From positions 445,036,001 to 445,100,000 of the forward strand of contig CM097882.1 in NCBI GenBank assembly GCA_044892505.1: DNA of 64,000 nt, given 5' to 3'. Under the pieces are notes generated by a model. It did not search any database. It was not told the origin of the DNA and saw only the letters and a list, made by a program, of their open reading frames with translations. Below, piece by piece: positions 15,419 to 59,538 of this stretch. This DNA is from Schmidtea nova (taxonomy: Eukaryota). The translations under genes and the position numbers were made by a program. Each line of letters starts with the position of its first letter. The first letter of the stretch is position 1.

Positions 15419-21453
<6,035 letters not shown>

Positions 21454-32685: not shown

Positions 32686-33799
32686 TTTTATAAAATAAAA
32701 GTTAATTAGACATTATCTTTTTTCTTTTTAAAAAACATTTTGTCGACACGAAAATATATAAATTGACATCTCACTGTAAGTGGAGTGAATTATTTGAAAT
32801 CTCATGTTATAATATTAACAGTATTAATTTTAAATTATTTTTAATTGATTTTTTTTCTAAATAATTAGTGTTTTTCTCTATCTGTTTTTAGGCCTTAGTT
32901 TTGAGTTGTAAATAAAGATTAATTTTTAAGTGGCAATTTAATGGGAGTATTGGGGTGTTGAGAATGATATATGTAATTATTTATATCGAAACAGTACAAT
33001 GCTTTTGAATTGAATCGTTATAAAATAAAAACGAAAATTGAATGACTACACTGTATTTCACTCAATAAACTCACCTAATCGATTTTTTACTTTAGTTAAC
33101 ATTTTTCATAAAAATAATTACTGTTGTTGTTTTTTGTGGTTGTTAATCATCATTTTACCAGAGGTTTTAGACTGGTTTTATAAAAATAAAGATAATATTG
33201 TATTTTGGTTGAATAAAAATGGATAATATAATAGTACAAGAGTGAATGAAACTTTTGCATGGTTTTGTTAGAGGTATACCTTTTTATGTATGATGTGGGA
33301 ACAATGAACGCGAGTTTATGTGTTTATATACTTTTGGGTGTTGCTGAATAAGCTATTGTTATGATTATTTGCGATTGTATGTTGGGTGAAATAAGTGATT
33401 CAGTGAATGGGTGTGAATGCTTGTACAGTTTCTGGATGTATGATGCTAACTAACATAACTGGGTAGATTTTCGGTATGAATTGTCTGGGTGTATGATGCT
33501 AATGACTGTTATTGAGTGATACGGTGTGGTGTGTGTGTATTGTATTTTAAATAAATGTTGCATGTGGTACTAGTATGGATGGTGTTATTGAATGGAATGG
33601 ATGTATTGTTTTGCAAATATAGATGTAATATGACTTATGTGATATCGTGTGGGGGTACTTTATAAAATAATATATTTATATATAGATTATATAAAATATT
33701 TTTAGAATAATAAATAATAATTTTTATAATACTTTCTATAAATTTTAAATTTATCATCTTATGAAAGTTATATAATAAAATTTCTAATTTTTATAATAT

Positions 33800-34563
33800 T
33801 GTTGGGTTATTATTCTGTAAGATCGGTTTACTGACCTGACTCCTCGTGCTCTTTAATTTTCGAAATCAATGAACCCAACACAGAACAATCTTTTTATTCG
33901 CGATCAACACAAATTACAGTTTTAGTTACACACACGTTTGATTAATTTACGCTTTCTTTCGATTCGGATTTGACTCTTTAATTCACAGGATGCTTTCTTA
34001 CTTTGTCTGTTTAGTCGTTTCAGGATCCTTTTCTATTCGCTTTCACAGTCTTTTTAATAATCTCTCTTTTGACTGTCCACTCGTCGGCCCGGTCCTCTGT
34101 TTTGCGCTGCCTTTTATAGTTCTCGCAAATAGCAATTAGGTTTTATCGATACCTAAAAGTTAATCAATTTCGGGTTTAATTGTCTTGCTGACAATTAATT
34201 TTGATTACCCTCGAATTGATTTTCCCTAATTGCCCCGACTTTGATCTCTCGGGTCTTTTGGCGCTCGGGCTTTCTTCATCGCTCGGGTTTCCCATTGCCT
34301 CGGGCTTCCCATTGTCTCGGGTTTCCCATTGAGCGATTAATTAATTTTAATTATTTTGTTTTTATTAAATAACTTTCTCTGGGGACCCCTTATTAAATTT
34401 CTATTATTATTTTTGGGTTCGTCTTTTGATTTGGTATTCAACCATACCCATTTCCCCCAGTGAATATTAATTTTACATTTTTGATAAATTTTAATTAATT
34501 TTTGCATTTTAATTTATTTCGATATTTCTTGTTACTTTTGTGATTTTTATACTAACCCCAACA
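33800..34563 (-). repeat. 3' LTR (764 bp)
   Basis: Near-identical to 49564-50327. I found only two differences (ttagtcg/ttaatcg and cccggtc/ccccgtc). Confidence 0.97.
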
Positions 34564-34580
34564 TATCTCACCCCTTTATT
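34564..34580 (-). promoter_or_regulatory. Polypurine tract
   Basis: The minus strand reads aaataaaggggtgagata immediately before the TGTTGGGG start of the 3' LTR. Confidence 0.75.
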
Positions 34581-35098
34581 TAAGATTCGTCCTCGAATCT
34601 ATTTTTCCATTTTTCTTGTTAACATGGTGGAGTCTACTCAATACTATAGATGTGCGTAATGATAATTGTTAATAAAAATTTTGATTATAAATAAGACGGT
34701 AGAGAAATCTCAATACCAAATATTATACAATTTAATATAATAATTTTGCCACTATTCTACTTCTGATAATATTAATATCAATAATAATTATACTTATAAT
34801 TGGTAACGATAATAGTAATAATAGTAACAATACTAACGATAATGATAATTTAATAATACTAATACTAATACTAATACTAATAACAACAAATATTATTAAT
34901 AATAATTTATTATAATCCTTTCATATTGATTATAATAACAATAATAATTAATTATAATAACTGTAATAATTATACTTATAACGATACTAATAACAATTGC
35001 AATAATGATAATAATGCTAATAATTCTAATATTAATGATATAAAAATTCTAATAATTCCAACAACAATGTTGTAATAATAATGATAATAATAATAATA

Positions 35099-35153
<55 letters not shown>

Positions 35154-35438
35154 GAATTCGAATAATAAATTGTTAACGATAAAGTAACAATAATTCATTT
35201 ATTTATTTATATTTTTATTTATTTTTTTTTTGCAATGGTCATATAATAATAATACTAACAATAAGTTGATAATTAATAGTTAATACNNNNNNNNNNNNNN
35301 NNNNNNNNNNNNNNNNNNNNNNNNNNNNNNNNNNNNNNNNNNNNNNNNNNNNNNNNNNNNNNNNNNNNNNNNNNNNNNNNNNNNNNNNNNNNNNNNNNNN
35401 NNNNNNNNNNNNNNNNNNNNNNNNNNNNTAATTGTTAA

Positions 35439-35771
35439 ATCGGCTTTGCCGATGTTTACTTTAAAATCGGCTTTGCCGATAATTATTTGTGTTACTTGTT
35501 TTAAATCGGCTTTGCCGATTATTATTTATTGCAAAAGCATCATCAAAATTGATATAGAACAATTTGTCAGCTCTCATAGAATCAAGCAGTGAAAATCATT
35601 CGATATCATTACCAACATTAAAATTTTTAAAACTGCATCTGATTGGATTTGAAAAGTTTTCATGTAATTAATTTTATTTCAATGATCGGCTTTGCCGATA
35701 ATTATTTGTTTTTCTTGTTTTAAATCGGCTTTGCCGATTATTATTTATTCCCTTTGATCGGCATAGCCGAA
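35439..35771. repeat. Array of six ATCGGC-NNN-GCCGAT palindromes
   Basis: Exact atcggctttgccgat at 35439, 35466, 35505, 35685 and 35724; variant atcggcatagccgaa at 35757. Confidence 0.9.
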
Positions 35772-36049
35772 AATAGAGTCAATGTTGGGTTGGGTGTTGA
35801 CTTGATATATAACCATCAGATAGAACTCATGCGATTGCAGATTGCAGTTTGATTTTTTTTTTTGATAATATTTTTGGTAACTTTGACGAAAATGATTTTA
35901 TGGCAAATCACATATTTCCGGTTGTTGTCTCTGATTGATTTTCATTACAAATCTTTCAATTTCTCTTTATGATTTTATAAAAAGGAACTTTGCAGCAGCA
36001 GAAGAGAAAAAGAAAATAGCTGCTCTGAAATGGTTTTCTATTCACATTT

Positions 36050-36420
36050 GGTTTCAATTGTTGGGCTATTTTTGGAATTGTGAAAAGGATCGATGGAAAA
36101 TTGGTATGTAGTCAATTTTTTTTTTTTTTTGTTAATTTTAGATTTACATAAATAATTTTGATTAATTTGATTAACTGTAGTGAGAAGATCTATAAACATT
36201 TTTAATGTTAATGATGATGATGATAATAATAATAAGTTTCAATTGTTGGAATATTTTTGGAATTGTGAAAAGGATCGATGGAAAATTGGTATGTAATCAA
36301 TTTTTATTTCTGTTAATTTTAGATTTGCATAAATAATTTTGATTAATTTGATTAACTGTAATGAGAAGATCTATAAACATTTTTAATATTAATGATGATG
36401 ATGATAATAATAAAAATAAA
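36050..36420. repeat. ~185-bp tandem duplication in the element's 3' region, amid (AAT)n tracts
   Basis: ggaattgtgaaaaggatcgatggaaaattggtatgt and gagaagatctataaacatttttaat each occur twice. Confidence 0.85.
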
Positions 36421-36421
36421 A

Positions 36422-36478
<57 letters not shown>

Positions 36479-37111
36479 CATGATAATACTACTAATATTT
36501 TGATAATGATATTAATAATAACAATTATTCTTTTAATAATAATAATTATAACAATATGTTCTCACTAATAATACAAATTTTTTTTTTGAACAAGNNNNNN
36601 NNNNNNNNNNNNNNNNNNNNNNNNNNNNNNNNNNNNNNNNNNNNNNNNNNNNNNNNNNNNNNNNNNNNNNNNNNNNNNNNNNNNNNNNNNNNNNNNNNNN
36701 NNNNNNNNNNNNNNNNNNNNNNNCGTAATAATACCAATAATTATTTATAACGTCTTTTATAATTGATCATAATATAAATGATAATGAATATACGTTACCC
36801 CTACTAATAATAATTATAACAATACTTTGATACTAATAATAATAATAATGAATTAATAATTATAATGATGATAATAACAATAATAATAATACTCTTAATA
36901 ATGTTTCTAACAATTTTTTTTTTTTTTTTTTTTTTTTTTTACTGACTATGATGTTAATGCTCTCGTATTGTATGAGGGTTATTTTTTATCATATTCATAA
37001 TTTCTATATTATTATTTTTTTGGTTTATTTAACTTATTTTGGGATGGGACGCCAATATCAAAGACAATAAAATATTTATTAATTAACTAAAATATATATA
37101 CATATATGTTT

Positions 37112-38578
37112 TTAGTCCAGTTTTAGTTCGATTTTTCCAACTTCACTTTTGTAACGGATAAATGTTTTTTCACGCTGGTAAATAATCCCATTTACCGTTA
37201 TGGTTTCACTTGCTTCTATTTGTGAATATTTTCTTTTTCTATTTTCAAGGTGGAGTATCGGTCCATTTTCATATGATATTGAAACTCTTGCGATAGACAA
37301 ACCGGTTATTACCTCAACGCTTTCTTCAATTGCCTCGAGATCATTTTCTGTTGCCAACTTCAATTCCGATTTCCCAATTTCCAAATCAACTTCCATATCC
37401 TCTGTCAAATCGATTTGCTCTGCCATTTTCTCAATTCCCACAGACAGGGCAATGGTTTTCGTAATTGCCGTGCTCGTCGTTGGCATTGTGTTTATGGTAT
37501 GAACTTTTCGATATTCCTCCAATGAATACTTCTTTGATGGGGTTGCTTTGGGAATTTGGATATCATCAATCCATGAATTTTCAATTTTTAAATATATTTT
37601 CCGAATGTTTTTGACATCTTCCAGGGCTGAATGGATGCGCACTTGCGTTTGTTCTCCAAGCCTTTGTTCAACCACAGTTTTCAGTTTGAAAAATTCACCT
37701 TTTCTCGATATCCCTTGCAACTGAAGTGCCTTTGCTGTGGACAAGTCTCGAATGCCATATAATTGATTTGTCCAAATTTTCAAATACTGGAGTTCTGCAT
37801 GCAAATCATGGCCAACCAATATTTTCCCAACAGTTAAATTCTGAATTTGTTTCATCTCCAAATATTGGTCGCATTGGTTCCTACTCGCAACCTCTGTTAT
37901 GCCATGTATTCTCGATTGGAAATGTCTCATTTTTCCTCTCGGCGTGAGGTATATATTTTTAATTATTTTCCCAAAATAATTCATAATGGCGATTGACAAT
38001 GGCACCATTTGTCCATTTTCTGATGTGCCGTATTCTGCGTCGATAAACAATATCCTGCTTCTTATTTCTTCTTGGTTTAATTCTTTTCGAATGAAGGATA
38101 ATCTTCTTTTCATCATATTTTCTGATATTGGTAGTAACGTTGGATCTGATGGCAATCCTGGCTCAGTTTGCGGAACTTCTTCTTTACTGTTTCTGAACCT
38201 TGTTTCCAGCGCGATTAGTGCGTCTTCATTTGCCGATCTAAGTTGCTTCTTTAATGCTTCCTCTCGCATTCTCCACGATGAGTCTTTGTGCATTTCCCAC
38301 CATATCCGCTGATTTTCGTCGATCATTTCCACTTTTCCTTTCAACACATGTAGTGTGACTTCTTCTTCATTCATTACTTTGCTATTTTCCATCAACTTTA
38401 CTCCTCCTTTTCTGCTTACTCTCAGGATTCTTGTTTTCATTCTTCTGTCATCGCTTCTTAAATAATTCGGTATTTTTGTATTTTCATTAATTTGGAATGG
38501 GCCTTGTCCCATATAGTTTCGATGCAGTTTGAGGTAGGCATCATAGATATTTGGTATCCACTGAATTTGTTCCATCAC
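37112..38578 (-). CDS. Element accessory ORF, 488 aa, with a REX4/ISG20-like DEDDh 3'-5' exonuclease domain (~37580-38060)
   Basis: ExoI ILFIDAEYG, then SIAIMNYFGKII, SRIHGIT, ExoII-like GKILVGHDLHAELQYL, IRDLS, and ExoIII IHSALEDVK (H-x4-D). Confidence 0.85.
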   Translation of the reverse strand: MMEQIQWIPNIYDAYLKLHRNYMGQGPFQINENTKIPNYLRSDDRRMKTRILRVSRKGGVKLMENSKVMNEEEVTLHVLKGKVEMIDENQRIWWEMHKDSSWRMREEALKKQLRSANEDALIALETRFRNSKEEVPQTEPGLPSDPTLLPISENMMKRRLSFIRKELNQEEIRSRILFIDAEYGTSENGQMVPLSIAIMNYFGKIIKNIYLTPRGKMRHFQSRIHGITEVASRNQCDQYLEMKQIQNLTVGKILVGHDLHAELQYLKIWTNQLYGIRDLSTAKALQLQGISRKGEFFKLKTVVEQRLGEQTQVRIHSALEDVKNIRKIYLKIENSWIDDIQIPKATPSKKYSLEEYRKVHTINTMPTTSTAITKTIALSVGIEKMAEQIDLTEDMEVDLEIGKSELKLATENDLEAIEESVEVITGLSIARVSISYENGPILHLENRKRKYSQIEASETITVNGIIYQREKTFIRYKSEVGKIELKLD

Positions 38579-38909
38579 TGAAATATTTATAATTTAAAAT
38601 TTTGTTTAATTTAAAAATTTGACGCTATCGCCAAGGTGGAATACCTTGAGTACCCCATCCTGGCTGATAACGGTATAAATAATAAATATTTAATAAAATT
38701 AATTACCTATTTAATTTTCAGTTTTATTCTAATTTATTAATTTAGGGATTCCCTTATATTTTTAATTTTATCTCTCTTCAACCAATCAAATCCGTTTCCG
38801 ATCGAAAGCGCAAATTTTACAATGAATCACATAAATATGGATAAAAGAAAGTTCATACTATTACCGTACAAATAAATTATTATAGTTGCATGCAAAATTA
38901 AATGTCTCA

Positions 38910-41900
38910 CTATACAAACGTTTCCTCGTAGACAATCCACGGTCTTGGTGTCCTGGATTGACGTACTGCATGATTGTTCATTTTTTGAAAGCAAATCAGT
39001 AGTGAGAGAAGAATAACAATGAGAAATGGTGTTGCACTAATAACAATAGTCGATAAAATAATACATGTTTTTGCATTGTCGTTAGATGAAGATGATAAGT
39101 TTTTCAGAATTGTCACATCATAGATATGAGAAGGAATGATTGTCGTTTGAAGTTTTTTTGTCATATTTTTATATACATAATTGTTTTTTGAATCATCGCT
39201 ATCAGTAATGTTATATGAAACTCGAACAAGTTTGTTTTCGACAAGAGTGATCTGCCATTGTTTGGAATGAGAAGTAAATCGATAATATTTGATTTTCATC
39301 ATAACAAATTTTGAATTCGATATAGATCTTAATCTTTGAAAATTTAAAATTTGATGTGAAATGTTACTTGTTAATATTGCCTGAATTTTCCCGCAATAAT
39401 GAATTTCGACTTTTTTATTAACTTCCGCTTGTCGGGATGCGTTTAATTTCTGATTTTTATATTCAAAGATGACTCGATTTGTTTCATTCACCAATGTCAC
39501 GGATTGTTGAGTGGAATAGATCTTGAACCATTGATTATCAATTTCAGTACCATTTTTCCGTAATGCTTTTTCGTAATAATGAATGACGAGATTATATGTT
39601 TTATGCAATTCTAAATTAACATAATGTACATAAGGTTTCTTGAGATTTAACGTATCGATCGTGTACTTTTCGAAAATAATTTTCACTTGTTGGGATTCAT
39701 GGGGTTCCCAATATACATTGATACCTTTTATTATTGGTTCTATTGATACTTTGCTATTTAATTTTTTTGTCCAAATTTCAATTTCAAATTGATGTTGTAT
39801 TTTTGTATTATTTTCTTGATATTGTTGTTGGGTTATTAACCAGGGATATTTGTAATTCATTGTTAAATCATGCGCAACGTACATATTGTTGTTAAAATTC
39901 AACTTTATTGGTGGATCAAAATAATTTAATAAATTATTTACTTTTATTTCGTCTCTTGGTTCACAATGATAGACCCATACCATTTGGGTACATGTTGCAT
40001 ATATATCAAATTTTTCTAAAAGTGGAACTCTTTTTATTGCATACATTGGAAAGATTTTAGTCGAATTTGTTCCCAAAACATTAATCATCATTACTGTTGC
40101 AATCAGTAATACTTTATTGATATATCCCAATGATGCGGAGTTTTTTGGATCCCTCTGCTTGCTGATCGTTTCATCTTGCGACTTTTTCTTTTTTGATCTT
40201 AGCTGATATTTATTGTCATCCATAACTGGCACTTTTTTGCATCTATTAGCATGAATGATAATTGTTCCGGCCTTTTTATTATTTTGTGGCCGTAGTTTTA
40301 AATTAGTTTCAGTGGTATCGCATACCAGATATGGTCCTTTAAATGGTCTTTGTAGCTTTGGTGATAAACCCTTAGCTGGCTCTGGTTTGTTTACATAAAC
40401 CAAATCTCCTATTTCAATACCGTGCGCATGCGCTCGTTTGTCATAACACTCTTTATAACTTTCCTGTTGATGTTTTATTTTGAGTCCTGCTTGAACCCAT
40501 ACTGACTGTAGTCTTTCTTGCATGACAACTTTATAGTTCGATACATCCATATATTGCGATATAGGTGCTTGAAATTTTAAATCTATTGGCATATTATTCC
40601 GTCGTAGATACATAAGATAGAAAGGTGTTTCGCCAGTACTTTCATTTACTGAATTTCGATATGCGAATAAACACGGTTTAATGAATAGATCCCAATCTTT
40701 TTGCTTTCTGTTTACGTAAGATGATATCATATTGATTAATGTTCCGTTGAACCTTTCAACTAACCCATCTGTTTGCGGATGGTACGGTGATGTACTGAGT
40801 TTCAATATTCCGAATAATTCCGTTATTGAATTAAATAATTCGCTTTGAAAGTTTGTTCCTTGATCTGTAAGTAACTTCTTTGGTGCTCCATATCGAAAGA
40901 TAATGTTTTCTACAAATATTTTTGCAACTGTTTCTGCCTTTTGATTCTGCATTGCATAGGCTTCTGGCCATTTAGTTAGATAATCGCAAAATACAACGAT
41001 ATACTTATTGCCATTAATTGTTTCCGGTAGTGGACCAACAATGTCCATTGCTGTCATTTCCATTGGAGCTCCTGGTACAGGCATAGGCTTTAATGGTACT
41101 TTTATTTTCCTTCCTGTATTTCGTCTGGTCAGGCACACTCCACAAGATTGACACCATTGTCTAACGTCTTGTTCCATGGTGTCCCAATAATATTTCAATT
41201 TCAACCTTGACAATGTTTTTCTAGCTGATAAATGTCCTCCTAACGCCCCGTCATGGTATATCAACAGTAATGCTTTTCGATGTTTTGTTGGAACAATAAT
41301 TAACAAGTTTTCATTTTTAACACATTTTAACAGACCGTCATGGATAATATATTTATGTTTTTCTTTAACTATGTGTTTCCAGTCGCTCTCTTTTTTGATA
41401 GTGACTGCATTTTTCCGTATTTGTTTTAATTCATCATCATTTTCTTGATCATATTGTAATTCTTTCATATTGTTTGCGGTTTTAATTGCCATAAATATTG
41501 TGTCATTATAATTTGTTTCATTCTGATTATTATAATTTTCTTCAGGAATTCTCGATAAGGTATCCGCATTTGCATTTGATTTACCTGTGCGACATTTAAT
41601 TTCAAAATCATATTCCTGTAGAGCGATTGACCATCTTATCAGCTTACTGGCTGAATCTCTATGCTTCATGAGCCATTGTAGTGGATTATGATCTGTAAAT
41701 ACAATAAATTTCCTACCAATTAGATATTGTCTGAACGTGGTTATTCCATAAACTAGTGCTAACGTCTCCTTTTCAATGGTAGAATAATTCTTTTCATGAG
41801 GTTTCAATGTTCTACTAGCATAGGCAATAACGTGATCTTTCTCGCCGTTAACCTTTTGTCCGAGTACGGCGCCTAATGCAAAATTACTTGCGTCAGTCAT

Positions 41901-44396
41901 TAAGATGAAAGGTATTTTAAAATTTGGGCATCTCAAAATCGGCTTTTTAATTAGACTTTCTTTGAGCAAATCAAATGCTTCTTGCTGAGCTTTTGTCCAT
42001 TTAAATTGAGCTTGTTTCTTTAATAGCATATTCAAAGGCTGTGCCACGTTTGAAAAACTTTTAATAAATTTTCTATAATAACTAGCTAATCCAAGAAATT
42101 GTCGAACTTGATCTACATCTTTCGGAATTGGGTAATTTTTAATTTTCTCTACATTTTCTGGGTTTGGTTGTAATCCATTGCGTGAAATAATATGACCAAC
42201 ATAAACTACTTCTGATTTCCCCCATTCGCATTTCGAGGGTTTTATTTTCAAATTTGCTTCTAATAATCGTTTGAATACTGTTTCTACATCCTTTAGGTGT
42301 TCCTGAAAACTACTTGAAAATATTATTATATCATCAATATAAACTAATGCATGTGGAATGTCACGCAAGACAAAATTCATACCTCTTTGGAACGTGGCTG
42401 GCGCTCCTGTTAAGCCGAATGGTAATACATTGAATTCATACAAACCTTTGCCGTCTGAAAATGCTGTTTTTCTTCTATCTTCTTCTTTTACTTTAAACTG
42501 ATTATATCCTTTATTTAGATCAATTACTGTGAAGAATTTCACTTCTCCCATCTGATCAAACATTTCTTGTGGAACTGGAATTGGATACGTATCTTTTCTT
42601 GTAACCTGATTTAATTTTCGGTAGTCAACACAAAATCTTAAATCACCGTCTTTCTTTTTGACAACGACTATTGATGATGAGAATGGTGATGAACTATCTC
42701 GTATTATTTTAAATTCTTTCATTGCTTTGATTTGTCGATCACTTTCTTCTTGATGTATATATGGAATTCTATACGGTCTTAATTTGATAGGTGTTTCGTC
42801 GAGTAGTGGTATCTCGTGTTCTATCACTTGAGTAAGTCCCAAATCATATTCGTGCCTTGCAAACACTTTATCGTATCTTCTCAGTAACGCCATAAATTCT
42901 CGTTTTTGTACCTCAGTTAAATCGTTGCTAACAACTTGTGGTTTTTTATAGATTTTAATGTTCCTCGGTAACTTTTGATCCTTTTCTGTTCTAAACTTTG
43001 TTAACCTTCCCAACTTTGTTTTGGGTTTCATTTGAATGGCTTTTGCGCTATGATTTGCTATTCTTACTGGTACTGTTTGATCCTTGATTTTTACTATCTC
43101 ATCACACATTGGAATATCATATTTTTCTACTAGCTTCTGATTTGGCTCAAATATACATTCGTCATCTGATGCACCTGTTACATTTGCATAACATATTACT
43201 TCGCTTCTCGCTGGCAATTCCATTGCTTGATTTAGAAAGACTTCTTTGTTTGCAATTTTACTGGGCTGTTCCTTTATTAATTTCCCTGTAGTTAAATCAA
43301 GAGCAATTCCTTGTAATTGCCGCATAACATCCATCCCAACTAAACATATTACGGGACTTTTTCTTATAACTGTTACATTATGCGTTATTTCTTTATCACC
43401 GATAGTTAATTTAGCTTCTAATTTCCCAATTACATCTAAACAGTTCTGCGACATTGATTTGATCTTTTTACTCGTTGGTTTCATATTTACTCTTTCTTTA
43501 CGCGTTAACATTTTGTCTGACACTATTGTGTGACTTGAACCTGAATCCAACAAGGCTTCGACCGTTCTTTCATTAAACTGTATGTTTATCCGAGGTTGTT
43601 TGGCTTCTCTCCCCATGGTCATCAGCGCATAACTACATGGTAGACCAAGCATGTTTTTCCGTTCAATTTCCGCACTTGTTGGCTCGATATTTTCTAATTC
43701 ACATTTGATATGATTTACCGGTTTCATTTCCTTTAATCTTTCACTTGGATACATAGGTGCTGTTGGCACAAATGCTGGTGTATACCATTTTGTAAGAGTA
43801 TCAATTCCACTCAGCTTTGGTATTGGTTCAAGTAAAAATGTTGATTCTGGCTTTATTTCGCTTCCGACTCTTCCTTTTTGAAAATATTTCGGTTCATTTT
43901 TATTCTTATCATTACCGTCATTCTTGTTATTATTTCTGTCACCAAATTCACATAAGGATTCTTCGCTCTTTTGATCGCTTTTCAATTGTGCTTTCACACT
44001 TGCCATTTCTTTATATTGATGATGTGTAATAAAAAATTTTGCCAAAAATGGAATGCAACTAATGATAATTTTCCATGACCATCCTGATATTACGTATATT
44101 CTATGAGCAGATAGCACTTGAGATATGATTACCTTTAACGTTACTGCGACCACATAAATTCCAATTAAACCAGCACATGCTTGTCCTAAGAACATAAACT
44201 TTCCCCAAATCTTTTCCATCGTTTTATACGTGGCTCTTTTGAAATGATCAGGTGTTAATAAATATTCATAATTTATTTTATCCTCTCCATTTGGTAGTAT
44301 GGTGTCAATCATTTCTGAGATTATTCTCTCTTTCTTTGAAGGGAATAATAAATTTCTTTGGGCTTCTTCAATATCATCACTTGCATAAAACCCCAT
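38910..44396 (-). CDS. Env C-terminus/TM, aspartic protease, RT, RNase H, integrase, then a second type-I membrane protein (1828 aa frame)
   Basis: WGKFMFLGQACAGLIG TM; LLDSGSS; RFCVDYRKLN, LPFGLTGAP, VYIDDII; MTDASNFALGAVL; H..GGH..C..C, DIVGPLP, TDQG, GLVERFN, FKGPY; hydrophobic VLLIATVMMINVLG and CIILSTIVISATPFLIVILLSLLICF. Confidence 0.95.
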   Translation of the reverse strand: MGFYASDDIEEAQRNLLFPSKKERIISEMIDTILPNGEDKINYEYLLTPDHFKRATYKTMEKIWGKFMFLGQACAGLIGIYVVAVTLKVIISQVLSAHRIYVISGWSWKIIISCIPFLAKFFITHHQYKEMASVKAQLKSDQKSEESLCEFGDRNNNKNDGNDKNKNEPKYFQKGRVGSEIKPESTFLLEPIPKLSGIDTLTKWYTPAFVPTAPMYPSERLKEMKPVNHIKCELENIEPTSAEIERKNMLGLPCSYALMTMGREAKQPRINIQFNERTVEALLDSGSSHTIVSDKMLTRKERVNMKPTSKKIKSMSQNCLDVIGKLEAKLTIGDKEITHNVTVIRKSPVICLVGMDVMRQLQGIALDLTTGKLIKEQPSKIANKEVFLNQAMELPARSEVICYANVTGASDDECIFEPNQKLVEKYDIPMCDEIVKIKDQTVPVRIANHSAKAIQMKPKTKLGRLTKFRTEKDQKLPRNIKIYKKPQVVSNDLTEVQKREFMALLRRYDKVFARHEYDLGLTQVIEHEIPLLDETPIKLRPYRIPYIHQEESDRQIKAMKEFKIIRDSSSPFSSSIVVVKKKDGDLRFCVDYRKLNQVTRKDTYPIPVPQEMFDQMGEVKFFTVIDLNKGYNQFKVKEEDRRKTAFSDGKGLYEFNVLPFGLTGAPATFQRGMNFVLRDIPHALVYIDDIIIFSSSFQEHLKDVETVFKRLLEANLKIKPSKCEWGKSEVVYVGHIISRNGLQPNPENVEKIKNYPIPKDVDQVRQFLGLASYYRKFIKSFSNVAQPLNMLLKKQAQFKWTKAQQEAFDLLKESLIKKPILRCPNFKIPFILMTDASNFALGAVLGQKVNGEKDHVIAYASRTLKPHEKNYSTIEKETLALVYGITTFRQYLIGRKFIVFTDHNPLQWLMKHRDSASKLIRWSIALQEYDFEIKCRTGKSNANADTLSRIPEENYNNQNETNYNDTIFMAIKTANNMKELQYDQENDDELKQIRKNAVTIKKESDWKHIVKEKHKYIIHDGLLKCVKNENLLIIVPTKHRKALLLIYHDGALGGHLSARKTLSRLKLKYYWDTMEQDVRQWCQSCGVCLTRRNTGRKIKVPLKPMPVPGAPMEMTAMDIVGPLPETINGNKYIVVFCDYLTKWPEAYAMQNQKAETVAKIFVENIIFRYGAPKKLLTDQGTNFQSELFNSITELFGILKLSTSPYHPQTDGLVERFNGTLINMISSYVNRKQKDWDLFIKPCLFAYRNSVNESTGETPFYLMYLRRNNMPIDLKFQAPISQYMDVSNYKVVMQERLQSVWVQAGLKIKHQQESYKECYDKRAHAHGIEIGDLVYVNKPEPAKGLSPKLQRPFKGPYLVCDTTETNLKLRPQNNKKAGTIIIHANRCKKVPVMDDNKYQLRSKKKKSQDETISKQRDPKNSASLGYINKVLLIATVMMINVLGTNSTKIFPMYAIKRVPLLEKFDIYATCTQMVWVYHCEPRDEIKVNNLLNYFDPPIKLNFNNNMYVAHDLTMNYKYPWLITQQQYQENNTKIQHQFEIEIWTKKLNSKVSIEPIIKGINVYWEPHESQQVKIIFEKYTIDTLNLKKPYVHYVNLELHKTYNLVIHYYEKALRKNGTEIDNQWFKIYSTQQSVTLVNETNRVIFEYKNQKLNASRQAEVNKKVEIHYCGKIQAILTSNISHQILNFQRLRSISNSKFVMMKIKYYRFTSHSKQWQITLVENKLVRVSYNITDSDDSKNNYVYKNMTKKLQTTIIPSHIYDVTILKNLSSSSNDNAKTCIILSTIVISATPFLIVILLSLLICFQKMNNHAVRQSRTPRPWIVYEETFV

Positions 44397-45460
44397 TTGG
44401 GCAATTTTTTTAATGATGTAAAATTTACCAAGTATTCTAGAGTGATCAATTCTAATTTATCCGGCGTTTTTACTCCTCGGTAATCTGGTAACGCAATCCA
44501 ATGATCTGGTGCTAATCGGTATAACGGAGCAAGTAATCTATTGCATTGAAGAACCTTTGGTTTAACGTGCTCCTCCAATAGTATCCTAGTTATTGGTTCC
44601 ATAAACCGCATTTTTCCGTTCATGCTCACTGGTAATTCGTTTGTGCACTTTTCATATTTCATTATTTTTACTGTTACCTCTTTACATCTGTAGCTATACA
44701 AAGCTTCTCCAAATATCCTAGCAAATACTCCATTTTCTGATATCAACATAGGCGCAACTAAATTTGGGTTTGTAATTACCATTGCCATTCGATTTCGAAG
44801 TATCTCTTTATTTAATTTACAATCATTAAGGATCATTTCTCGATATATATTCTCCATGATGTTCTGGCTAAAATGAAACAAAAAATCAATTTTATTATTA
44901 AAATAGTGAGTTAATTTAATCTCTGTCGAATGTATTCTCGTTTTAGCTTCGTGCACCATCATTTTGGATACATAAACGCCTTTATAATTTGTTGCATATA
45001 CCATTTGACCGCATTTACTGGTGATATCCTTTTTTATGAAGCGCATGCTATCCGTTGGCATGGTCGACATCAAAACCGTTGCCGTTTTCTTCATCCATAT
45101 CGGCGTTGATCTAATTGTTATATTTGGGGCATAATTATTATTAAAATTGTCTGGTCGTTCTCGAAACTGTTCTCCACTCAATTCTTTGAAATTCATAGTT
45201 TTTAAGTGCGCTAAATTACATTCCTGGGTTTTGACATTATACACAAGAATGGACTCTCCTGTTTGGCAATTGGTTTGTTTCATGTTACAAAACGGATGTG
45301 TCTGTAATTTCCCCGTATCATCATCAAAAGCTCCTTCAAATTCTCTCAATTCCGTTAAATATTCCTCTATTACTACAGACTGTTTGATTATCTTCCCATC
45401 TACTTTGTATGGTTCTCCTTCACAATCTCCATCTTGTTTCATTACTCCTTTTACGACCAC
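44321..45460 (-). CDS. Middle part of a chuvirus-like glycoprotein ectodomain; in frame with the upstream ORF after a single TAA
   Basis: Cys-rich pattern GDCEGEPY, FCNMKQTNC, CGQMVYATNY, LNDCKLNKEILRN.L, GEALYSYRCKEV, CTNELPV, RFMEPITRIL, CNRLLAP.Y..DHW. Confidence 0.8.
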   Translation of the reverse strand: MVVKGVMKQDGDCEGEPYKVDGKIIKQSVVIEEYLTELREFEGAFDDDTGKLQTHPFCNMKQTNCQTGESILVYNVKTQECNLAHLKTMNFKELSGEQFRERPDNFNNNYAPNITIRSTPIWMKKTATVLMSTMPTDSMRFIKKDITSKCGQMVYATNYKGVYVSKMMVHEAKTRIHSTEIKLTHYFNNKIDFLFHFSQNIMENIYREMILNDCKLNKEILRNRMAMVITNPNLVAPMLISENGVFARIFGEALYSYRCKEVTVKIMKYEKCTNELPVSMNGKMRFMEPITRILLEEHVKPKVLQCNRLLAPLYRLAPDHWIALPDYRGVKTPDKLELITLEYLVNFTSLKKLPKWGFMQVMILKKPKEIYYSLQRKRE

Positions 45461-45463
45461 TGT

Positions 45464-48400
45464 TTATCTAATTCTATGATTTCGCTTTGCTTTTAATTTA
45501 ATTTCCGAATTTATTTTTAATTCTCCTGTTTGAAAAGCAGCGAGGCAATTTTCCGGCATTACTTCCACTGGCCGTGGGATTGTATACATTTTTATCATTG
45601 AAGTATGGCTCCACTTGCCACAGTAAAATATAAAGGAAGTGCGCTTAACTATACATTCTCTTACTGTTGTTCGTCGTAAGTCAGATTCTTGATATACATG
45701 ATATTTCACATCATTTTCTATCTTTAATTTTCTTGGATATGCGTCTGAACACTCTGCCATATCTACAACTGAATAAATTTTCCCCATTTCTGTTTTTGAA
45801 CAGTCATACGCTGTCATACTCGTTACCTGTGTGATTCCAGCACATAAAATAATTATCATAAAGATTGCCCAAGGAAACATTATTGTCTTCCTCTTTTCTG
45901 GACTAACTCTGACATTTAGCGATTTTTGAGGTAAACTTTCTTTATTACTTTCGTTTTCATTTATTATAAACATTTTCATCAACTTGTCCCAACCTCCAAT
46001 CTTTTTAACCCAGCTCATTAAGTATTCGTTTATATTTCGAGCAGCAGTATCTATTAAATTTTCTAACTCATCTGATTTCATGATCTTATGAGCACCAATT
46101 TCCAAAATTACATAAGCTAAGCTCATTAATGTTACTTCTGTAGTAATTCCATTTCTAGTTAATTTCTCGATTACATCTTTGTCACAAAATCTTTCATTTT
46201 TACCAAACCTTTGCATGATGCTAGGGAGTCTGTTTCTCACTTCATTTACTATGCCTCCCAATTCATATTTTTCATCTACCTCCATTTCACACATTGGGTA
46301 TACTGCTTTAGTCAAGCCTTTTAATAATGCTTTGGTTTTATCTACTTCCTGTTCCAATCGCACAAGACCTTTCTTTATTTCATATAAAGTTCTCGGCTTC
46401 TTAGTATTAATTTCATTATTCATTTCGCCTTTAAGCTCCGCCAATTCTTGCACTTTTGTTAATTTATACTCATTTTTGTTATTCTTTTTGGTTTCCTCAT
46501 CATCCTTTATTACTTCGTTTATTTCTTTGATTTCTTTAACCTCATTTTCATCATCATTTTCTCTGTCTGTATTTGATCCATCAGATTTGTCTATTAATTC
46601 AAATTTCTGTTCCTTAATCACTGTTACACAATTTATCAAATATCCATTTCCACTATCGGAACGTAAATATCCATTTTCATCTAACTCTTGTGGCACAAAT
46701 CCACAATCAAATAAATATTCATCATCATCTAATTCTTCTCCTTTAAACATAAATATAATAATTCCATCTTTTCCTATTCTTTCAGCAGCTCTTTTTCTTA
46801 ATTTCCGAACTTTTGTGCACCAATGCTCTACTATATATTCAGTTTTACCATAATCTTCGTAATCTAATGCTATTGTAAACGGATTCAATTCTATTGTAGT
46901 TTTTCTAAGTTTTTTGCCTAATTGTCGTACTAAATTTCTTAAATTTTCTCTATATTTTGATTTTTCATACATGTATGGCCTTATTGTATCTATAATATCT
47001 AATTTACTATCTCTCTCAATTTCAATTTCTTCTATCAATCTTAATTTTCTAATAATTTCATTTGCATCCCCTTTACACAAAATATCCTTTAATTCCCTAC
47101 AAATTTTCTGTGATTCATCTTTTATTATTTCATTGTTTCTATTCATAAATACTATCTGTACTCTGTTTTTATTCTCAGGTGTAATACCACAATCTATTAA
47201 TATTTCCTCGTCATTTAAACATCTATTTTTAAATTTTACTTCCTTTATCCATTTTCCACTATTTTCCTCTAATCTCTTTTTAAATTCCTTTACGCACTCT
47301 CCTATTTCACAACGAATACACATCACATCATTATTACTTTCATCAACAACATCAATAACAATAAAATCTAACCATGTTTTCTCTCTGAACAATTTTCCAA
47401 ATATTTTCATTATTTTCTCAGTTTCAGTTTTATCTTTTGAATTCTCATTATTATAATCAGCACACATTTCAATTACAGTTTTTAATTTTTGTATACTCAT
47501 CGGCATTTGACTCAATTTCTTTAGCATTGTCATTATTTTTGACGTCTCTTTTACTTTTGCCTCCATTAAAACTTTTGTTCTCGACAAAATCATTTTTATT
47601 TTTTCTGTTTCTAATTCATCATTTACTACTTCCTTCATTATATCTGTCTCTGACCCTTCTGATTGCGATTCATACATCATATGATTATCAGCTTCTTCGT
47701 CTGATTCAAATTTACACATTAATTGATCCAATCGTTTACCCATTTGCTTTATCTCTTTTTCAATTCTTTCGTTAGCATCATCGGGTTGTACAAAAGCCAC
47801 ATTATCAAATTTTGATTTATCATTTTGAAATCTGATTTTCTTTAATATAGGTCTTTGAAATTTTCCATTATTCTTTGGGCATGATCTAGCCATGTGTCCA
47901 TATCCTCTGCATGAGTGACATTGAATTTGTCCTTGGAGATTCACTCTATCTCTCTGTGGTGATGGTGATGTTGACGGAGATCTCGATCTTGCAAAGCAAT
48001 TTCGTGAAGAATGGCCTTTCCTTCCACAATTATAACACTGCATATTATCACTAGCTCTTTGATCATTGTTGCCCCTTCTCTTGAAGGTTTTCTCGACATT
48101 GTCTTTCAACCAATCTGGCCACATCTTTCTTGGACTCCGTTGCGAATTATTTTTAAACCAACATTGACTATTACTGTGCCCTTTTCGTTGGCAATTATCA
48201 CACTGAACAGGACTTGGGCTTCTTCGAGCGCTGTTTTTAAACCAACATTGATTTACTTGATGTCCCAATCTTTTACAATAACTACATTGAATTGGCCTTT
48301 CTCTCTCTTCATTTGGGCTGTTTGACGACTTTCTTGGCTCGAATTTCACTCTGAACTTTGGTGATGGACTAGTTGATTTTTGCAAAAGAGTCTCTCTAAC

Positions 48401-49066
48401 TGGAGTTACCGATTCATCTCTCGTTTCATTTACAATTGCAAAGGATTCTGTTGTCTGTTGTGTGGTTTTGAGATTCAATTCAATCTTCATGGCCTTTTTA
48501 ATCAATTCATCGAAATTGTTGAAATCTACATAACACAGTGCTTTTTTGATCTCTCTTTTTACTCCTGACAGAAATTGATCTTGTAGTAATTCTTTCACTT
48601 GTTTCGTCACATCCGGTTGTTCTGGTTTCGCTTCAAAGGCTTTTTCTGCAAGAGTTGTTAAATGATAAGCGAACTCACTTACCGATTCATTTGACTTTTG
48701 TACTCGGTTGTAAAATTTTTGGCGCATTATTCTTTTGATATCGCCACCGATTAACTTGGCTGCCAATGCATCTTTTAGCTTTGTCCAATCATTTGCGATA
48801 AGTCTTTTGTCGATCTGTTGCCAAGCTTCTCGTGCTGCACCTTTCAAATATAATGGCAACCTTTGTACCATAATTGATTGGCTCCATCCGTATGCTGTCG
48901 CGTACATATAGTAATCTGCCATGAAATCAACAAAATCAATTGGGTCTCCTCCGTATTGCTCTACTGGCAATTTCTGACAACTTGCAAAATCACTACCATT
49001 GTTTGTGGGAGTAGTAGACATGGGTATTTGATCATTATTATTTGAATTACTAGCCATATTTTCCAC
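45464..49066 (-). CDS. Gag (capsid-like region plus 4 CCHC knuckles), 2 ubiquitin-like domains, Bcl-2-like domain, TM/signal peptide and Env N-terminus (1200 aa)
   Basis: YGGDP..F...Y...A..YGW..LPLYLKGAAREAW (retrotransposon gag); four Cx2Cx4Hx4C; FKNRCLNDEEILIDCGI and FKGEELDDDEYLFDCGF; LMSWVKKIGGWDKLMKMF; PWAIFMIIILCAGITQVTS-MTAYDC. Confidence 0.92.
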   Translation of the reverse strand: MENMASNSNNNDQIPMSTTPTNNGSDFASCQKLPVEQYGGDPIDFVDFMADYYMYATAYGWSQSIMVQRLPLYLKGAAREAWQQIDKRLIANDWTKLKDALAAKLIGGDIKRIMRQKFYNRVQKSNESVSEFAYHLTTLAEKAFEAKPEQPDVTKQVKELLQDQFLSGVKREIKKALCYVDFNNFDELIKKAMKIELNLKTTQQTTESFAIVNETRDESVTPVRETLLQKSTSPSPKFRVKFEPRKSSNSPNEERERPIQCSYCKRLGHQVNQCWFKNSARRSPSPVQCDNCQRKGHSNSQCWFKNNSQRSPRKMWPDWLKDNVEKTFKRRGNNDQRASDNMQCYNCGRKGHSSRNCFARSRSPSTSPSPQRDRVNLQGQIQCHSCRGYGHMARSCPKNNGKFQRPILKKIRFQNDKSKFDNVAFVQPDDANERIEKEIKQMGKRLDQLMCKFESDEEADNHMMYESQSEGSETDIMKEVVNDELETEKIKMILSRTKVLMEAKVKETSKIMTMLKKLSQMPMSIQKLKTVIEMCADYNNENSKDKTETEKIMKIFGKLFREKTWLDFIVIDVVDESNNDVMCIRCEIGECVKEFKKRLEENSGKWIKEVKFKNRCLNDEEILIDCGITPENKNRVQIVFMNRNNEIIKDESQKICRELKDILCKGDANEIIRKLRLIEEIEIERDSKLDIIDTIRPYMYEKSKYRENLRNLVRQLGKKLRKTTIELNPFTIALDYEDYGKTEYIVEHWCTKVRKLRKRAAERIGKDGIIIFMFKGEELDDDEYLFDCGFVPQELDENGYLRSDSGNGYLINCVTVIKEQKFELIDKSDGSNTDRENDDENEVKEIKEINEVIKDDEETKKNNKNEYKLTKVQELAELKGEMNNEINTKKPRTLYEIKKGLVRLEQEVDKTKALLKGLTKAVYPMCEMEVDEKYELGGIVNEVRNRLPSIMQRFGKNERFCDKDVIEKLTRNGITTEVTLMSLAYVILEIGAHKIMKSDELENLIDTAARNINEYLMSWVKKIGGWDKLMKMFIINENESNKESLPQKSLNVRVSPEKRKTIMFPWAIFMIIILCAGITQVTSMTAYDCSKTEMGKIYSVVDMAECSDAYPRKLKIENDVKYHVYQESDLRRTTVRECIVKRTSFIFYCGKWSHTSMIKMYTIPRPVEVMPENCLAAFQTGELKINSEIKLKAKRNHRIR

Positions 49067-49542
49067 TTGTTTCTTATTTCGAAGATTATAAGATTTCTTT
49101 TGTACAACTTTTTCTCGTCTAAATTTTAAAATATTACAATTTTTAATTTTACCTTTTGTTTTAATTTTGACTTGATTTTTGGCAATTGGATTTTATCGAT
49201 TCTTTCTTTTCTGTTCAAGCTTTTTACTCTTTTATTTCAACTGATACAATTTATTTTCACTCTTTTTTTTTTTCAACAATTAATCTCGTTTTGTTTAGTT
49301 TTCTAACTTTAATTTCTCTTTTTACAATTATTCGATTTTACTTTTCAACAATTTTCTCTCTGATTTTATTCAATTATGTCGATTAATATCGTTTTCTTTA
49401 TTTATCAAATTCAATTTTCTATAGCAATTTATCTCTCCTTTTCTGTGATTCACTCCTTCACCGACCTTTAGATCACGTCGGTTATTATCGTAACAATTTT
49501 TCAACTATTCAATATTTTCACTATGCTCTCACCGACCCTCGA

Positions 49543-49560
49543 ATCACGTCGGGCTCACCA
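49543..49560 (-). promoter_or_regulatory. Primer-binding site, tRNA-Trp type
   Basis: The minus strand reads TGGTGAGCCCGACGTGAT, 3 nt inside the 5' LTR. It differs by one base from the avian retrovirus tRNA-Trp PBS TGGTGACCCCGACGTGAT. Confidence 0.85.
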
Positions 49561-49563
49561 AAA

Positions 49564-50327
49564 TGTTGGGTTATTATTCTGTAAGATCGGTTTACTGACC
49601 TGACTCCTCGTGCTCTTTAATTTTCGAAATCAATGAACCCAACACAGAACAATCTTTTTATTCGCGATCAACACAAATTACAGTTTTAGTTACACACACG
49701 TTTGATTAATTTACGCTTTCTTTCGATTCGGATTTGACTCTTTAATTCACAGGATGCTTTCTTACTTTGTCTGTTTAATCGTTTCAGGATCCTTTTCTAT
49801 TCGCTTTCACAGTCTTTTTAATAATCTCTCTTTTGACTGTCCACTCGTCGGCCCCGTCCTCTGTTTTGCGCTGCCTTTTATAGTTCTCGCAAATAGCAAT
49901 TAGGTTTTATCGATACCTAAAAGTTAATCAATTTCGGGTTTAATTGTCTTGCTGACAATTAATTTTGATTACCCTCGAATTGATTTTCCCTAATTGCCCC
50001 GACTTTGATCTCTCGGGTCTTTTGGCGCTCGGGCTTTCTTCATCGCTCGGGTTTCCCATTGCCTCGGGCTTCCCATTGTCTCGGGTTTCCCATTGAGCGA
50101 TTAATTAATTTTAATTATTTTGTTTTTATTAAATAACTTTCTCTGGGGACCCCTTATTAAATTTCTATTATTATTTTTGGGTTCGTCTTTTGATTTGGTA
50201 TTCAACCATACCCATTTCCCCCAGTGAATATTAATTTTACATTTTTGATAAATTTTAATTAATTTTTGCATTTTAATTTATTTCGATATTTCTTGTTACT
50301 TTTGTGATTTTTATACTAACCCCAACA
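49564..50327 (-). repeat. 5' LTR (764 bp) with TATA (TATAAAAG, 49875-49882), AATAAA (49657-49662) and ~18-bp U3 repeats (~50010-50095)
   Basis: Matches 33800-34563; motifs read on the minus strand. Confidence 0.97.
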
Positions 50328-51073
50328 ATATACATTTTTTTGAATTCAAATTTTTATATTTTAAGATTTTATATATTAATCGTAAATTTTTTCTATGAAA
50401 TTTCGAATTTGGAATTTTATAAAATGATAAAAATTTTTATATAATAACAATATTTTCGATTTGTAATTTTCATGGGTTTCAATATAATTTTTGATTTACA
50501 AACTCTTAGGAAAATTTTTGGTTTACAATTTTTTCATTATAAATTTTTCGCAATATAATAAAAAGTAAATTTTTATTTTTTATGATCAAAAACGAAATCT
50601 AAATAATAATAAATTTTTATCCACGAATTTCGCAATCCAAATAAGAATTCAATCTAAAAATTCTATATACTAAATAAAAATACAAGTAAAATAAATTGTA
50701 AATTTTTTCAAAGAATGGTTTTCGACATCAGGTAAGGTGAATTTCGGTTTCGTTCGAGCATGAATTTCCCAACCAAAGTACGCGCGAATTTTTCGAGACA
50801 CTTCACTTAGGAACTTCAGGCTCCCGAAAACAAGGTTCACTGGAGAAAATTATTTAGATAATGAATGAGGTTTAATTCAGATCAATCAATACTTGTCTTC
50901 ATAATTCGTTTCATTTCGTGATCATTATATCAGCTTTGAGCATTATATCAAACGATTCTCTTTTCAATGTTAACTTTTTATTCTACTTGTGTTTTCGGAT
51001 AAGATGGTAATTGTTGTGAGAGTGAAGGCGAATGACGGGTAACATATTCTTGTACAGTTAAATTATATAATGG

Positions 51074-51948
51074 TGCTGGGGTTGTTATAATCACAGAAAA
51101 TAAATTTAAAATTGCACAAATCAATAAAAATACAAAAAATTGGAAAAATAATAATTAATGTTCAAACATTAATTAAAAATTTACAAAAAATTAAAATAAA
51201 GTTTGAGCGGGGGAAACTGGTATGGGAGGATGCCAAACGACGAGACGAATTCGAATATGGGCATATAAAAATAAAAAGAAGCGCACAGAAGGAAATAATT
51301 AGAAAATACAAATTAATTAAAATAATTAAGTATTCTATAGGAAGCCCGAGCTAGTGGGAAACCCGAGCTAATGGGAGACCCGAGCTAATGGGAAACCCGA
51401 GCTAGTAGGAGATCCGAGCGATGTGGGAAACCCGGGGCATCAGCGAGGTCATTAAACTATCAAATTAAATTGAATGCCCCGGGGAGAGCCGGAAAAACCA
51501 TTAACGGCAAAGATCCAGTTACGACCATGCAGGGCTGATCAGATCCAATTACAACAGAGTGGACTCGATAGTATCCAATTACACCGACAGAATGGCAACA
51601 CAAAGATGGTATAAAAACGGAGAGCAAAGTGCCAAAATTGCCAGTTGGTCGAAGATAAAATTTAGGCGTAAAGTGAATCTCAAACCGTTAGAAGATATTT
51701 GGAGGAGACGTTGAAAGGAAATCAAAAGTAGAATTTAAACTTAATCTTTTACGCACCAGAGAGGGAGATATCCCATTGGGTGTTCTACCCTCACGCGAAG
51801 AGTGCAGAGCCTGAGTAACTTTTTGTGATAAAAAGAGTTGTGATCATTTGAAAAATAAAGAAAGTTATTGTGTTGGGTTTTGTTTATTTTGTAATTGAAA
51901 GAGAACACAGGAGTCAGAAACTACCGACTCAACACTAATAACCCAACA
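51074..51948 (+). mobile_element. Solo LTR (875 bp) of a related subfamily, in the opposite orientation
   Basis: TG(C)TGGGG...AATAACCCAACA termini homologous to the main LTR, ATGG TSD (51070-51073, 51949-51952), 18-bp gggaaacccgagc repeats, and TATAAAA at ~51610. Confidence 0.88.
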
Positions 51949-56693: not shown

Positions 56694-57519
56694 ATCAACA
56701 TTTTTAATTTTTCTTTTTTCTTTATTTATGCCTCAAATTGAAATTATTCGTTTTTCTCGCTGTAACAATGTATAGACAGAATTTTATTCTCTACAAGATG
56801 GCCAAAATGAAAATTTAAAATATTGTGTTTTGCGCGCTGCACACATGTTTTGTTGTTATTAATTGGTTTCAATTGAAAAAATTAATTTAAATTCATTTGA
56901 TGGAAAATTCGACATATTTTCGGGACGAAAACTGGCCAGGCGAATTTAACCTTTTGTCTCGCTTGGCAGAGATGGATAAATCGTTTTTGGAAATTAGCGG
57001 TAAGTTGAATTTTATTGTTAATTATTTAAATATCTCAAATGAAAATTTAAATAGTAATTTTGTACAAAGTAATTCGGGATATTTTGATAAAAGTAAAAAT
57101 AAATTTGCTAATGTAGATTCTGATAATAATGTTTTCATTTGATAACTATGAAGGTGATAACTATGTTGATGATTTTAAAATTCCTTATCCTAAAGTGTAT
57201 AATCTTTGCAATAAGCATAATAAAAATGAAACTTTTAATAAAACCTTCACAGAGACTAATCTATATCGAAATCTCAAAAACTCTGAATATAAGAATACTA
57301 CGATTAAGAAATTAAATGAACACAATGTAGAGAAAAATTTATTAGAAAATCAAAGTTTTGGAGGTCGATCTGATTCAGCTTTAGATCGAATTGTTTCTGT
57401 TTATGGTTCTTTGGAGTCCCCGGGCAGGGACATTCATGATCTGAAAATAACAATTTTTAATAAAAATCAAAAAAAATAAATCTAATTTACTTGATATTGA
57501 AAATTCTAATTTACTTGAA

Positions 57520-59532: not shown

Positions 59533-59538
59533 AGGTGC

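Follow-up and report, generated by a model that had tools for sequence, protein, structure and literature searches.

Errantiviruses with a GAG-ENV-POL order and a gB-type envelope protein (env) are described from nematodes, bryozoans and flatworms, including six from Schmidtea mediterranea (Smed_errantivirus_1 to _6) (Chary & Hayashi, eLife 2026, PMC13524379). Smed_errantivirus_1 is listed there with 45 copies and no assigned tRNA primer, and the same account cites non-canonical nematode GAG-ENV-POL elements with a flipped env/pol order (Sacco et al. 2022). The planarian Burro1-4/GYPSM1 elements consist of one huge frame, comprising gag with CCHC motifs, ubiquitin (Ubi)/SUMO-like and BCL2-like motifs, an env related to mononegavirus fusion proteins, and protease, reverse transcriptase, RNase H and integrase (PR-RT-RH-IN) (Arkhipova & Yushenova 2019, PMC6431247). 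Burro elements are transcribed once PIWI silencing is lost (PMC8532177), and gypsy elements have expanded in some planarian genomes (PMC11410931). Here, we describe a 16.5-kb element on the minus strand of a 64,000-nt stretch of the Schmidtea nova genome (GCA_044892505.1, contig CM097882.1, positions 445,036,001 to 445,100,000; hereafter the window), at window positions 33800 to 50327.

The element shares with Smed_errantivirus_1 a Ty3/gypsy pol, a gB/chuvirus-type env between gag and pol, and many near-identical copies. Its env is identical to the printed Smed_errantivirus_1 env stretch at 206 of 251 positions (~82%, counted by eye). Unlike in the published description of that element, a tRNA primer, tRNA-Trp, fits here. 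The env type, the gag-env-pol order and an ectodomain lying between a signal/transmembrane segment and a transmembrane anchor are all found, and by its sequence the element belongs to the published GAG-ENV-POL, gB-type group of Ty3/gypsy errantiviruses. As in Burro1-4/GYPSM1, env lies in frame between a BCL2-like motif and the protease within a single open reading frame (ORF), and the ubiquitin- and Bcl-2-type matches after gag are consistent with the motifs reported there, though sub-threshold. The sequence makes it likely that the element is a compact relative of the Burro elements. The MATH, BIR, ankyrin and dUTPase domains of Burro have no Pfam match here at E <= 1.

A sequence-only reading of the window had called the element giant and knew of no described precedent for its layout. 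Neither claim stands: Burro elements exceed 30 kb and encode 4,873-5,140 aa, vs 16.5 kb and ~3,380 aa here, and the layout is in print both for Burro/GYPSM1 (gag-Ubl-BCL2-env-pol, where Ubl denotes a ubiquitin-like unit; PMC6431247) and for GAG-ENV-POL errantiviruses that include a close relative (PMC13524379). The one-protein layout is already published and does not constitute a new class. The present element adds a further predicted membrane protein, whose fold is modelled as fibronectin-like and whose place in the chain holds other ectodomains in distant relatives. It also adds an ISG20-like nuclease gene, which is optional and has an RNA signal of its own, and tRNA-Trp as the primer. The main text of PMC13524379 contains neither 'exonuclease' nor 'polyprotein', and its examined text describes no post-integrase membrane protein or cargo; the Burro account in PMC6431247, compared by description, likewise mentions neither a fibronectin type III (FN3) membrane protein nor an exonuclease ORF. 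A description of the FN3 post-integrase protein, the ISG20-like ORF or the membrane-threading model proposed below was not found in the literature searched; Grohme 2018, Sacco 2022, Repbase and published figures may hold some of it.

A single reading frame from gag to a predicted post-integrase membrane protein

Three minus-strand frames (49192-45464, 45463-44321 and 44456-38910) join into one ~3,380-aa reading, which starts with the ATG at 49057 and terminates at 38910, in the order gag-Ubl-Ubl-Bcl2-env-PR-RT-RH-IN-membrane protein. Pfam matches along the element follow the order gag, CCHC, a weak Bcl-2, a Monjiviricetes fusion glycoprotein, protease, RT, RNase H and integrase, and then the separate exonuclease ORF. 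The features of the element are as follows, in window coordinates.

50328-50331 and 33796-33799: target-site duplication, 4 bp, ATAT
49564-50327, minus: 5' long terminal repeat (LTR), 764 bp, 2 mismatches to the 3' LTR
49539-49560, minus: primer-binding site, 22 nt, tRNA-Trp(CCA), from sequence and matching host tRNA-Trp genes
47879-49057, minus: gag, with ATG at 49057, capsid-type domain and four CCHC zinc knuckles (PF03732, PF00098)
47141-47374, minus: putative ubiquitin/SUMO-like unit 1, read as a repeat of unit 2 from alignment
46676-46888, minus: ubiquitin/SUMO-like unit 2 (PF00240, E 0.0046, under the curated cut-off)
45956-46408, minus: Bcl-2-like helical domain (weak PDB and PF00452 matches)
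45818-45889, minus: internal signal-peptide-like segment 1, predicted cleavage before MTAYDC (hydropathy; 7/7 sister copies)
44202-45817, minus: env ectodomain, a fusion glycoprotein like those of chuviruses and like gB of HSV (herpes simplex virus) (PF24664)
44103-44201, minus: env transmembrane anchor, then amphipathic tail (hydropathy)
43308-43601, minus: aspartic protease (DSG) (PF00077)
41610-42839, minus: reverse transcriptase (YIDD) and RNase H (Pfam; Ty3 Gag-Pol match)
40212-41294, minus: integrase (H2C2, core, C-terminal part) (Pfam)
40065-40130, minus: internal signal-peptide-like segment 2 (hydropathy; above threshold in 6/7 sister copies)
39204-40031, minus: post-integrase ectodomain, three predicted tandem FN3 domains, sequon-rich (AlphaFold2, Foldseek)
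38910-39074, minus: C-terminal transmembrane anchor, short tail and polyprotein stop (hydropathy)
38623-38672, minus: conserved RNA hairpin ahead of ORF2 (paired changes, z scores)
38578-38585, minus: predicted splice-acceptor-like T-rich tract ending in AG, directly before the ORF2 ATG (window and 4/4 sister copies shown)
37112-38575, minus: ORF2, 487 aa, with exonuclease core at 38065-37562 (ISG20/REX4-like DEDDh)
34582-37111, minus: AT-rich 3' non-coding region, in which (TTA)n tracts and short internal repeats occur, differing in length among copies
34564-34581, minus: polypurine tract (sequence)
33800-34563, minus: 3' LTR, 764 bp, 2 mismatches to the 5' LTR

The sequence-only reading had already recognized much of this architecture. 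Its intact LTRs, target-site duplication, primer-binding site and polypurine tract are all confirmed from the sequence, and its separate exonuclease corresponds to ORF2 with the ISG20-like core. The fusion glycoprotein it placed between gag and protease in the same chain is borne out by PF24664, the junction matches and stop-free copies, and a second membrane protein after the integrase is supported by a predicted signal-like segment, ectodomain and anchor in four families. It had traced the frame from 49066 to 38910 (~3,385 aa), broken by one TAA and a one-base shift; both breaks are present, the first ATG is at 49057, and the reading is of ~3,380 aa. The TAA lies at 45466-45464 and the frameshift near 44405.

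Of 121 places scored in a search with the post-integrase domain, 24 are in frames that run for at least 3,380 codons without a stop, so both breaks are private to the window copy; three further frames as long, in which the match itself holds a stop, are left out of this count. Both breaks fall inside env, as might be expected if env were a nested insertion or the layout an assembly chimera, an explanation that we consider extremely improbable. A 2.6-kb query over the Bcl-2/env/linker (gag-tail/env) junctions matches in full length at all 40 scored places (97-100% identity; 1301 candidates), 39 of them outside the window, and five of nine other fetched copies are free of stops over 5.6 kb, from before env into pol. 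The same order is found in three further families, and the layout is published. Contigs of four public runs cover 30 of 30 bins of the stretch, although these come from one study that is possibly the assembly's own source and are not independent. The full-length junction matches, the stop-free copies and the shared order in the sister families refute a nested insertion or chimeric assembly.

Ten further copies were picked from the top and bottom of the post-integrase match list. Their LTR pairs are 99.6-100% identical in eight; one partial pair is 98.6% identical, and one copy has no pair. All seven of these copies with both flanks resolved show 4-bp duplications. The family is young and abundant, and has been recently and heavily copied.

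Sister families and selection

In a search of the genome for the env family, 68 of 3,412 candidates were scored; they gave 95 matches, with frames of up to ~3,400 codons. Seven copies of three further families were examined, their upstream and downstream stretches separately. The domain order is identical in all seven, the frames measure 3,345-3,401 codons, and the LTR pairs are 99.5-100% identical in six. Sequence identity to the window element differs along the chain: it reaches 81-93% in the integrase and 70-84% in env, and falls to 34-53% across the Ubl/Bcl-2 region and to 36-51% for the post-integrase protein. The ratio of nonsynonymous to synonymous substitution rates (dN/dS, Nei-Gojobori) is 0.03-0.09 for env and integrase where unsaturated (env 0.06-0.09), and 0.10-0.54 for the Ubl, Bcl-2, post-integrase FN3 and ORF2 N-terminal parts. 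Every module is under purifying selection.

The fusion glycoprotein and the cargo domains

PF24664 matches env above the cut-off in all three frame pieces (E 4e-36 to 6e-16). Its ectodomain has 537 aa and 14 cysteines in all six unbroken copies, and an env profile retrieved nothing meaningful among PDB sequences. A functional fusogen would be expected to show the strong constraint seen in the dN/dS values and the retained cysteines.

Between the zinc knuckles and env lie two ubiquitin-like units, where one had been proposed from the sequence alone, and one Bcl-2-like domain. The region of unit 1 aligns with the same stretch of P0008, a public protein with a related env (see below), as does unit 2 (E 5e-4). 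The Bcl-2-like domain matches PF00452 in three of three families (best E 6e-4), and 25 of the 28 rows of its weak PDB matches name Bcl-2 family proteins (E 0.1-2). Anti-apoptotic Bcl-2 proteins carry a BH1 motif NWGR and a BH2 motif of the W-x(5)-GGW type. With the PDB rows as reference, a BH2-like W..GGW motif is kept in all three families, and the BH1 motif NWGR is degenerate and not kept. The case for the anti-apoptotic module suggested earlier is weak, given a borderline Bcl-2 match and a degenerate BH1.

A predicted second membrane protein after the integrase

The post-integrase protein is predicted to be a type I membrane protein, in which a signal-like segment is followed by an ectodomain rich in sequons and, at the C terminus, by an anchor. 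Its ectodomain contains nine sequons in ~330 aa, vs eight in the ~1,320 aa between the env anchor and segment 2. AlphaFold2, run with a 12-sequence alignment, yields an all-beta model with a mean predicted local distance difference test (pLDDT) of 76, in which residues 12-287 are confident; single-sequence prediction of the same domain reaches a pLDDT of 31. The best Foldseek matches of the model are three-domain fibronectin type III fragments (FN10-12; E 1e-10, ~10% identity, whole-chain template modelling (TM) score ~0.3), and the model also resembles cell-surface receptor ectodomains. An Atlas search with the homologue P0004 retrieved FNDC/cytokine-receptor clusters at a borderline score. 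The ectodomain is accordingly predicted, from these models, to consist of three tandem FN3 domains.

Sequence searches give little beyond this. No Pfam family matched the window's post-integrase protein, the PDB sequence search returned one weak match to a neogenin FN3 domain (E 0.4), and a sequence search for longer homologues of the domain found none. Four distant representatives of the domain occur among 1.8 billion proteins, and the viral fold library contributed generic FN3/Ig-type phage and virus proteins only. The predicted FN3 protein is present in four families, namely the window's and its three sisters.

Eight public proteins carry a related env, seven of them at 35-42% identity. Three have a complete pol (P0006, P0007 and P0011), in polyproteins of 2,855-3,036 aa, and all three bear an extra aspartic protease after the integrase. 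In P0006 and P0011, the integrase is followed by a signal-like segment, an ectodomain and an anchor, and the FN3 profile has no match to these post-integrase parts. Ubl-like parts were matched in P0007 and P0008, and a Bcl-2-like part in P0005. The post-integrase slot predates the protein that now fills it. P0006 gives the impression of an FN3-like motif, though by eye only. P0005-P0009 and P0011 have two to four domains of the aspartic-protease type, some of them located after the integrase, and their env and RT are separated by C2H2 zinc fingers.

A probable membrane-threaded polyprotein

A hydropathy scan of the long frame reveals four segments above threshold, with the right in/out parity; all four are found in six of the seven sister copies, and they recur in the distant relatives. 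Signal peptidase prefers small residues at the end of the segment that it cleaves. To judge from sequence, both signal-like segments end in small residues suited to this enzyme. We postulate that translation of the 3,380-aa frame likely yields a single chain, predicted to cross the endoplasmic reticulum (ER) membrane four times, and that this threaded polyprotein is quite probably cut by signal peptidase and by the element's own protease. The threading proposed in the sequence-only reading is thereby supported in its segments and parity, with the cleavages being predicted.

In such a chain, gag-Ubl-Ubl-Bcl2 would stay in the cytosol. Segment 1 would open the membrane for env and, after the signal peptidase cut, could stay behind as the tail anchor of the Bcl-2-like domain. 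The env anchor would bring the chain back to the cytosol for PR-RT-RH-IN, segment 2 would direct the three-FN3 protein to the lumen, and the last helix would anchor that protein with its tail in the cytosol. Release of the cytosolic enzymes would fall to the element's protease. Particles may then carry two surface proteins: a gB-like fusogen and, as its likely partner in attachment or immune modulation, the FN3 protein.

Several observations weigh against this reading. The topology derives from a simple hydropathy scan, and the Bcl-2 core helix also rises above threshold in five of the seven sister copies. The Bcl-2 and ubiquitin matches remain under the Pfam cut-offs, env has just one or two N-glycosylation sequons, P0007 has no membrane segment after the integrase, and eight of the 22 dN/dS comparisons are saturated in dS. 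One frame would also deliver gag, env and pol at 1:1:1, which is unusual for particle assembly and hints at unseen splicing or recoding. Finally, the homologue P0004 is recorded as a stand-alone 410-aa protein that starts just before its signal segment.

Both of these last points speak for an alternative in which subgenomic RNAs, spliced or trans-spliced, are the main source of env and the FN3 protein, as they are in ordinary errantiviruses, and pol is translated from a gag-pol RNA that has been spliced; the single frame would then be a matter of genomic economy and the full threaded chain rare. Subgenomic RNAs would resolve the stoichiometry, and the acceptor-like site and hairpin before ORF2 in three families suggest that RNA processing is probably used. 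Against this stands the frame itself, which is open across every junction in four families with near-saturated synonymous sites and in the distant polyproteins. Open junctions argue against expression through subgenomic RNAs because an unused fusion would be expected to gain junction stops, and we regard this explanation as unlikely.

For the two surface proteins, we tentatively propose a two-protein entry system, which at present is a possibility somewhat on the doubtful side. It would pair a conserved gB-like fusogen before pol with an exchangeable attachment protein after the integrase, the latter built from three FN3 domains here and from unrelated ectodomains in distant members. Both would be cut by signal peptidase from a single polyprotein that passes the membrane four times, and the env signal would serve a second time, as the anchor of a Bcl-2-like death blocker. 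An env-FN3 complex prediction scored 0.00 in two runs, in which the alignments were unused and env was monomeric, and speaks neither for nor against binding.

Free infectious particles might, alternatively, not be formed at all. The membrane proteins would then tether Gag/Pol to membranes of the ER or of vesicles and pass RNA or capsids from one cell to another in contact with it, or else the FN3 protein would be a receptor decoy that alters host signalling and not a virion protein. The likeness of the FN3 model to fibronectin, receptor ectodomains and FNDC/cytokine-receptor clusters is in keeping with this, the cargo domains point to host control, and the account in PMC13524379 calls the transmission route of most such elements unknown. 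The strong constraint on env fits a working fusogen instead, and we rate this alternative as improbable, a little below expression through subgenomic RNAs. It is compatible with the threaded polyprotein and differs from it in outcome only.

ORF2 and its RNA signals

The ORF2 core matches ISG20L2 (E 1.5e-7) and ISG20 (E 1.2e-6) and resembles the DEDDh type. D-x-E and H...D are kept among its catalytic residues, and E replaces the second D. The LTR retrotransposons Vesta and Juno of bdelloid rotifers also carry a separate 3' ORF with a DEDD-family exonuclease, in which DEDD is changed to DEED (Rodriguez et al. 2017, PMC5408684). As described there, that enzyme is RNase D-like and DEDDy, in elements mostly without a true env, in contrast to the putative ISG20/REX4-like DEDDh enzyme of the env-bearing element here.

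ORF2 is full length in seven of the ten further copies and has homologues in all five copies of two sister families. The most distant family lacks it in both copies, and the stretch of one of these reaches the 3' LTR. Because one active family lacks it, ORF2 is regarded as accessory. The hairpin ahead of ORF2 has z scores of -6.0, -5.6 and -3.2 in three families, and six of its 19 pairs show two-sided changes, with three distinct families only. The sequence makes it likely that ORF2 is made from its own spliced or trans-spliced RNA and that its product trims RNA. Contig joints of four public runs (type unrecorded, one study) gave no usable splice evidence among 15 of the 199 listed.

Primer, termini and surroundings of the element

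The element has LTRs with a duplication, a tRNA primer site and a purine tract, and PR-RT-RH-IN with a Ty3/gypsy-type RT, which places it in Ty3/gypsy (Metaviridae). The best solved relative of the RT is Ty3 Gag-Pol (E 1e-119), with 404 bits for Ty3 vs 105 bits for the best retrovirus. The LTRs have TG...CA ends and are flanked by ATAT on both sides. The 22-nt primer site can pair with the 3'-terminal part of tRNA-Trp(CCA) of the host, including the added CCA. This pattern occurs 1,984 times genome-wide, always on one strand; the first 100 occurrences listed all fall in one tandem array, and ARAGORN identifies ten tRNA-Trp genes in one 3-kb piece of it. The array, a huge tandem series of tRNA-Trp(CCA) genes with a unit of about 282 bp, starts at about 128,022,000 (G000:C3) and holds the primer tRNA of these abundant elements.

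The primer site lies inside a short CCGAC...GTCGG hairpin (49560-49460, minus strand), likewise in the sister families, and in the window, as in one sister family, the motif recurs ~80 nt downstream. This hairpin may be a packaging or priming signal. Rfam returned one chance match over the whole element (E 0.47). Around the 4-bp duplication, the insertion sites of the copies and of the window (33794-33799 / 50328-50333) tend to read TA-NNNN-TA or close to it, which suggests a target preference.

Elsewhere in the window, a host kinesin gene (motor domain, KIF21-like stalk match) has exons at 1895-3744 and 10115-11139 on the plus strand, with a pogo/Tigger-type transposase between them (8105-9560, minus). 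Tandem 455-bp units with internal palindromes, resembling miniature inverted-repeat transposable elements, occupy 12575-13900 and are followed by exons of a host KDM5/JARID1-type histone demethylase (ARID, PHD, JmjC, C5HC2; 16320-21037, plus). On the other side of the element, a 61-nt stretch at 51355-51415 is 80% like its LTR, in opposite orientation, and a second, broken gypsy pol (RNase H, integrase) is found at 54110-55849 (minus). A 693-codon frame without a Pfam match, then a Ulp1 (SUMO protease)-like frame, at 57451-60285 (plus), are possibly a DNA transposon.

Implications

If the two-protein entry system holds, the element would amount to a virus with reverse transcription whose assembly and entry resemble those of a hybrid of a flavivirus and a herpesvirus, active in a regeneration model animal. 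If both membrane proteins act together on particles, it would represent a retroelement with separate attachment and fusion proteins from one polyprotein, an arrangement that we did not find described, and would offer a handle on how such elements spread among planarian stem cells.

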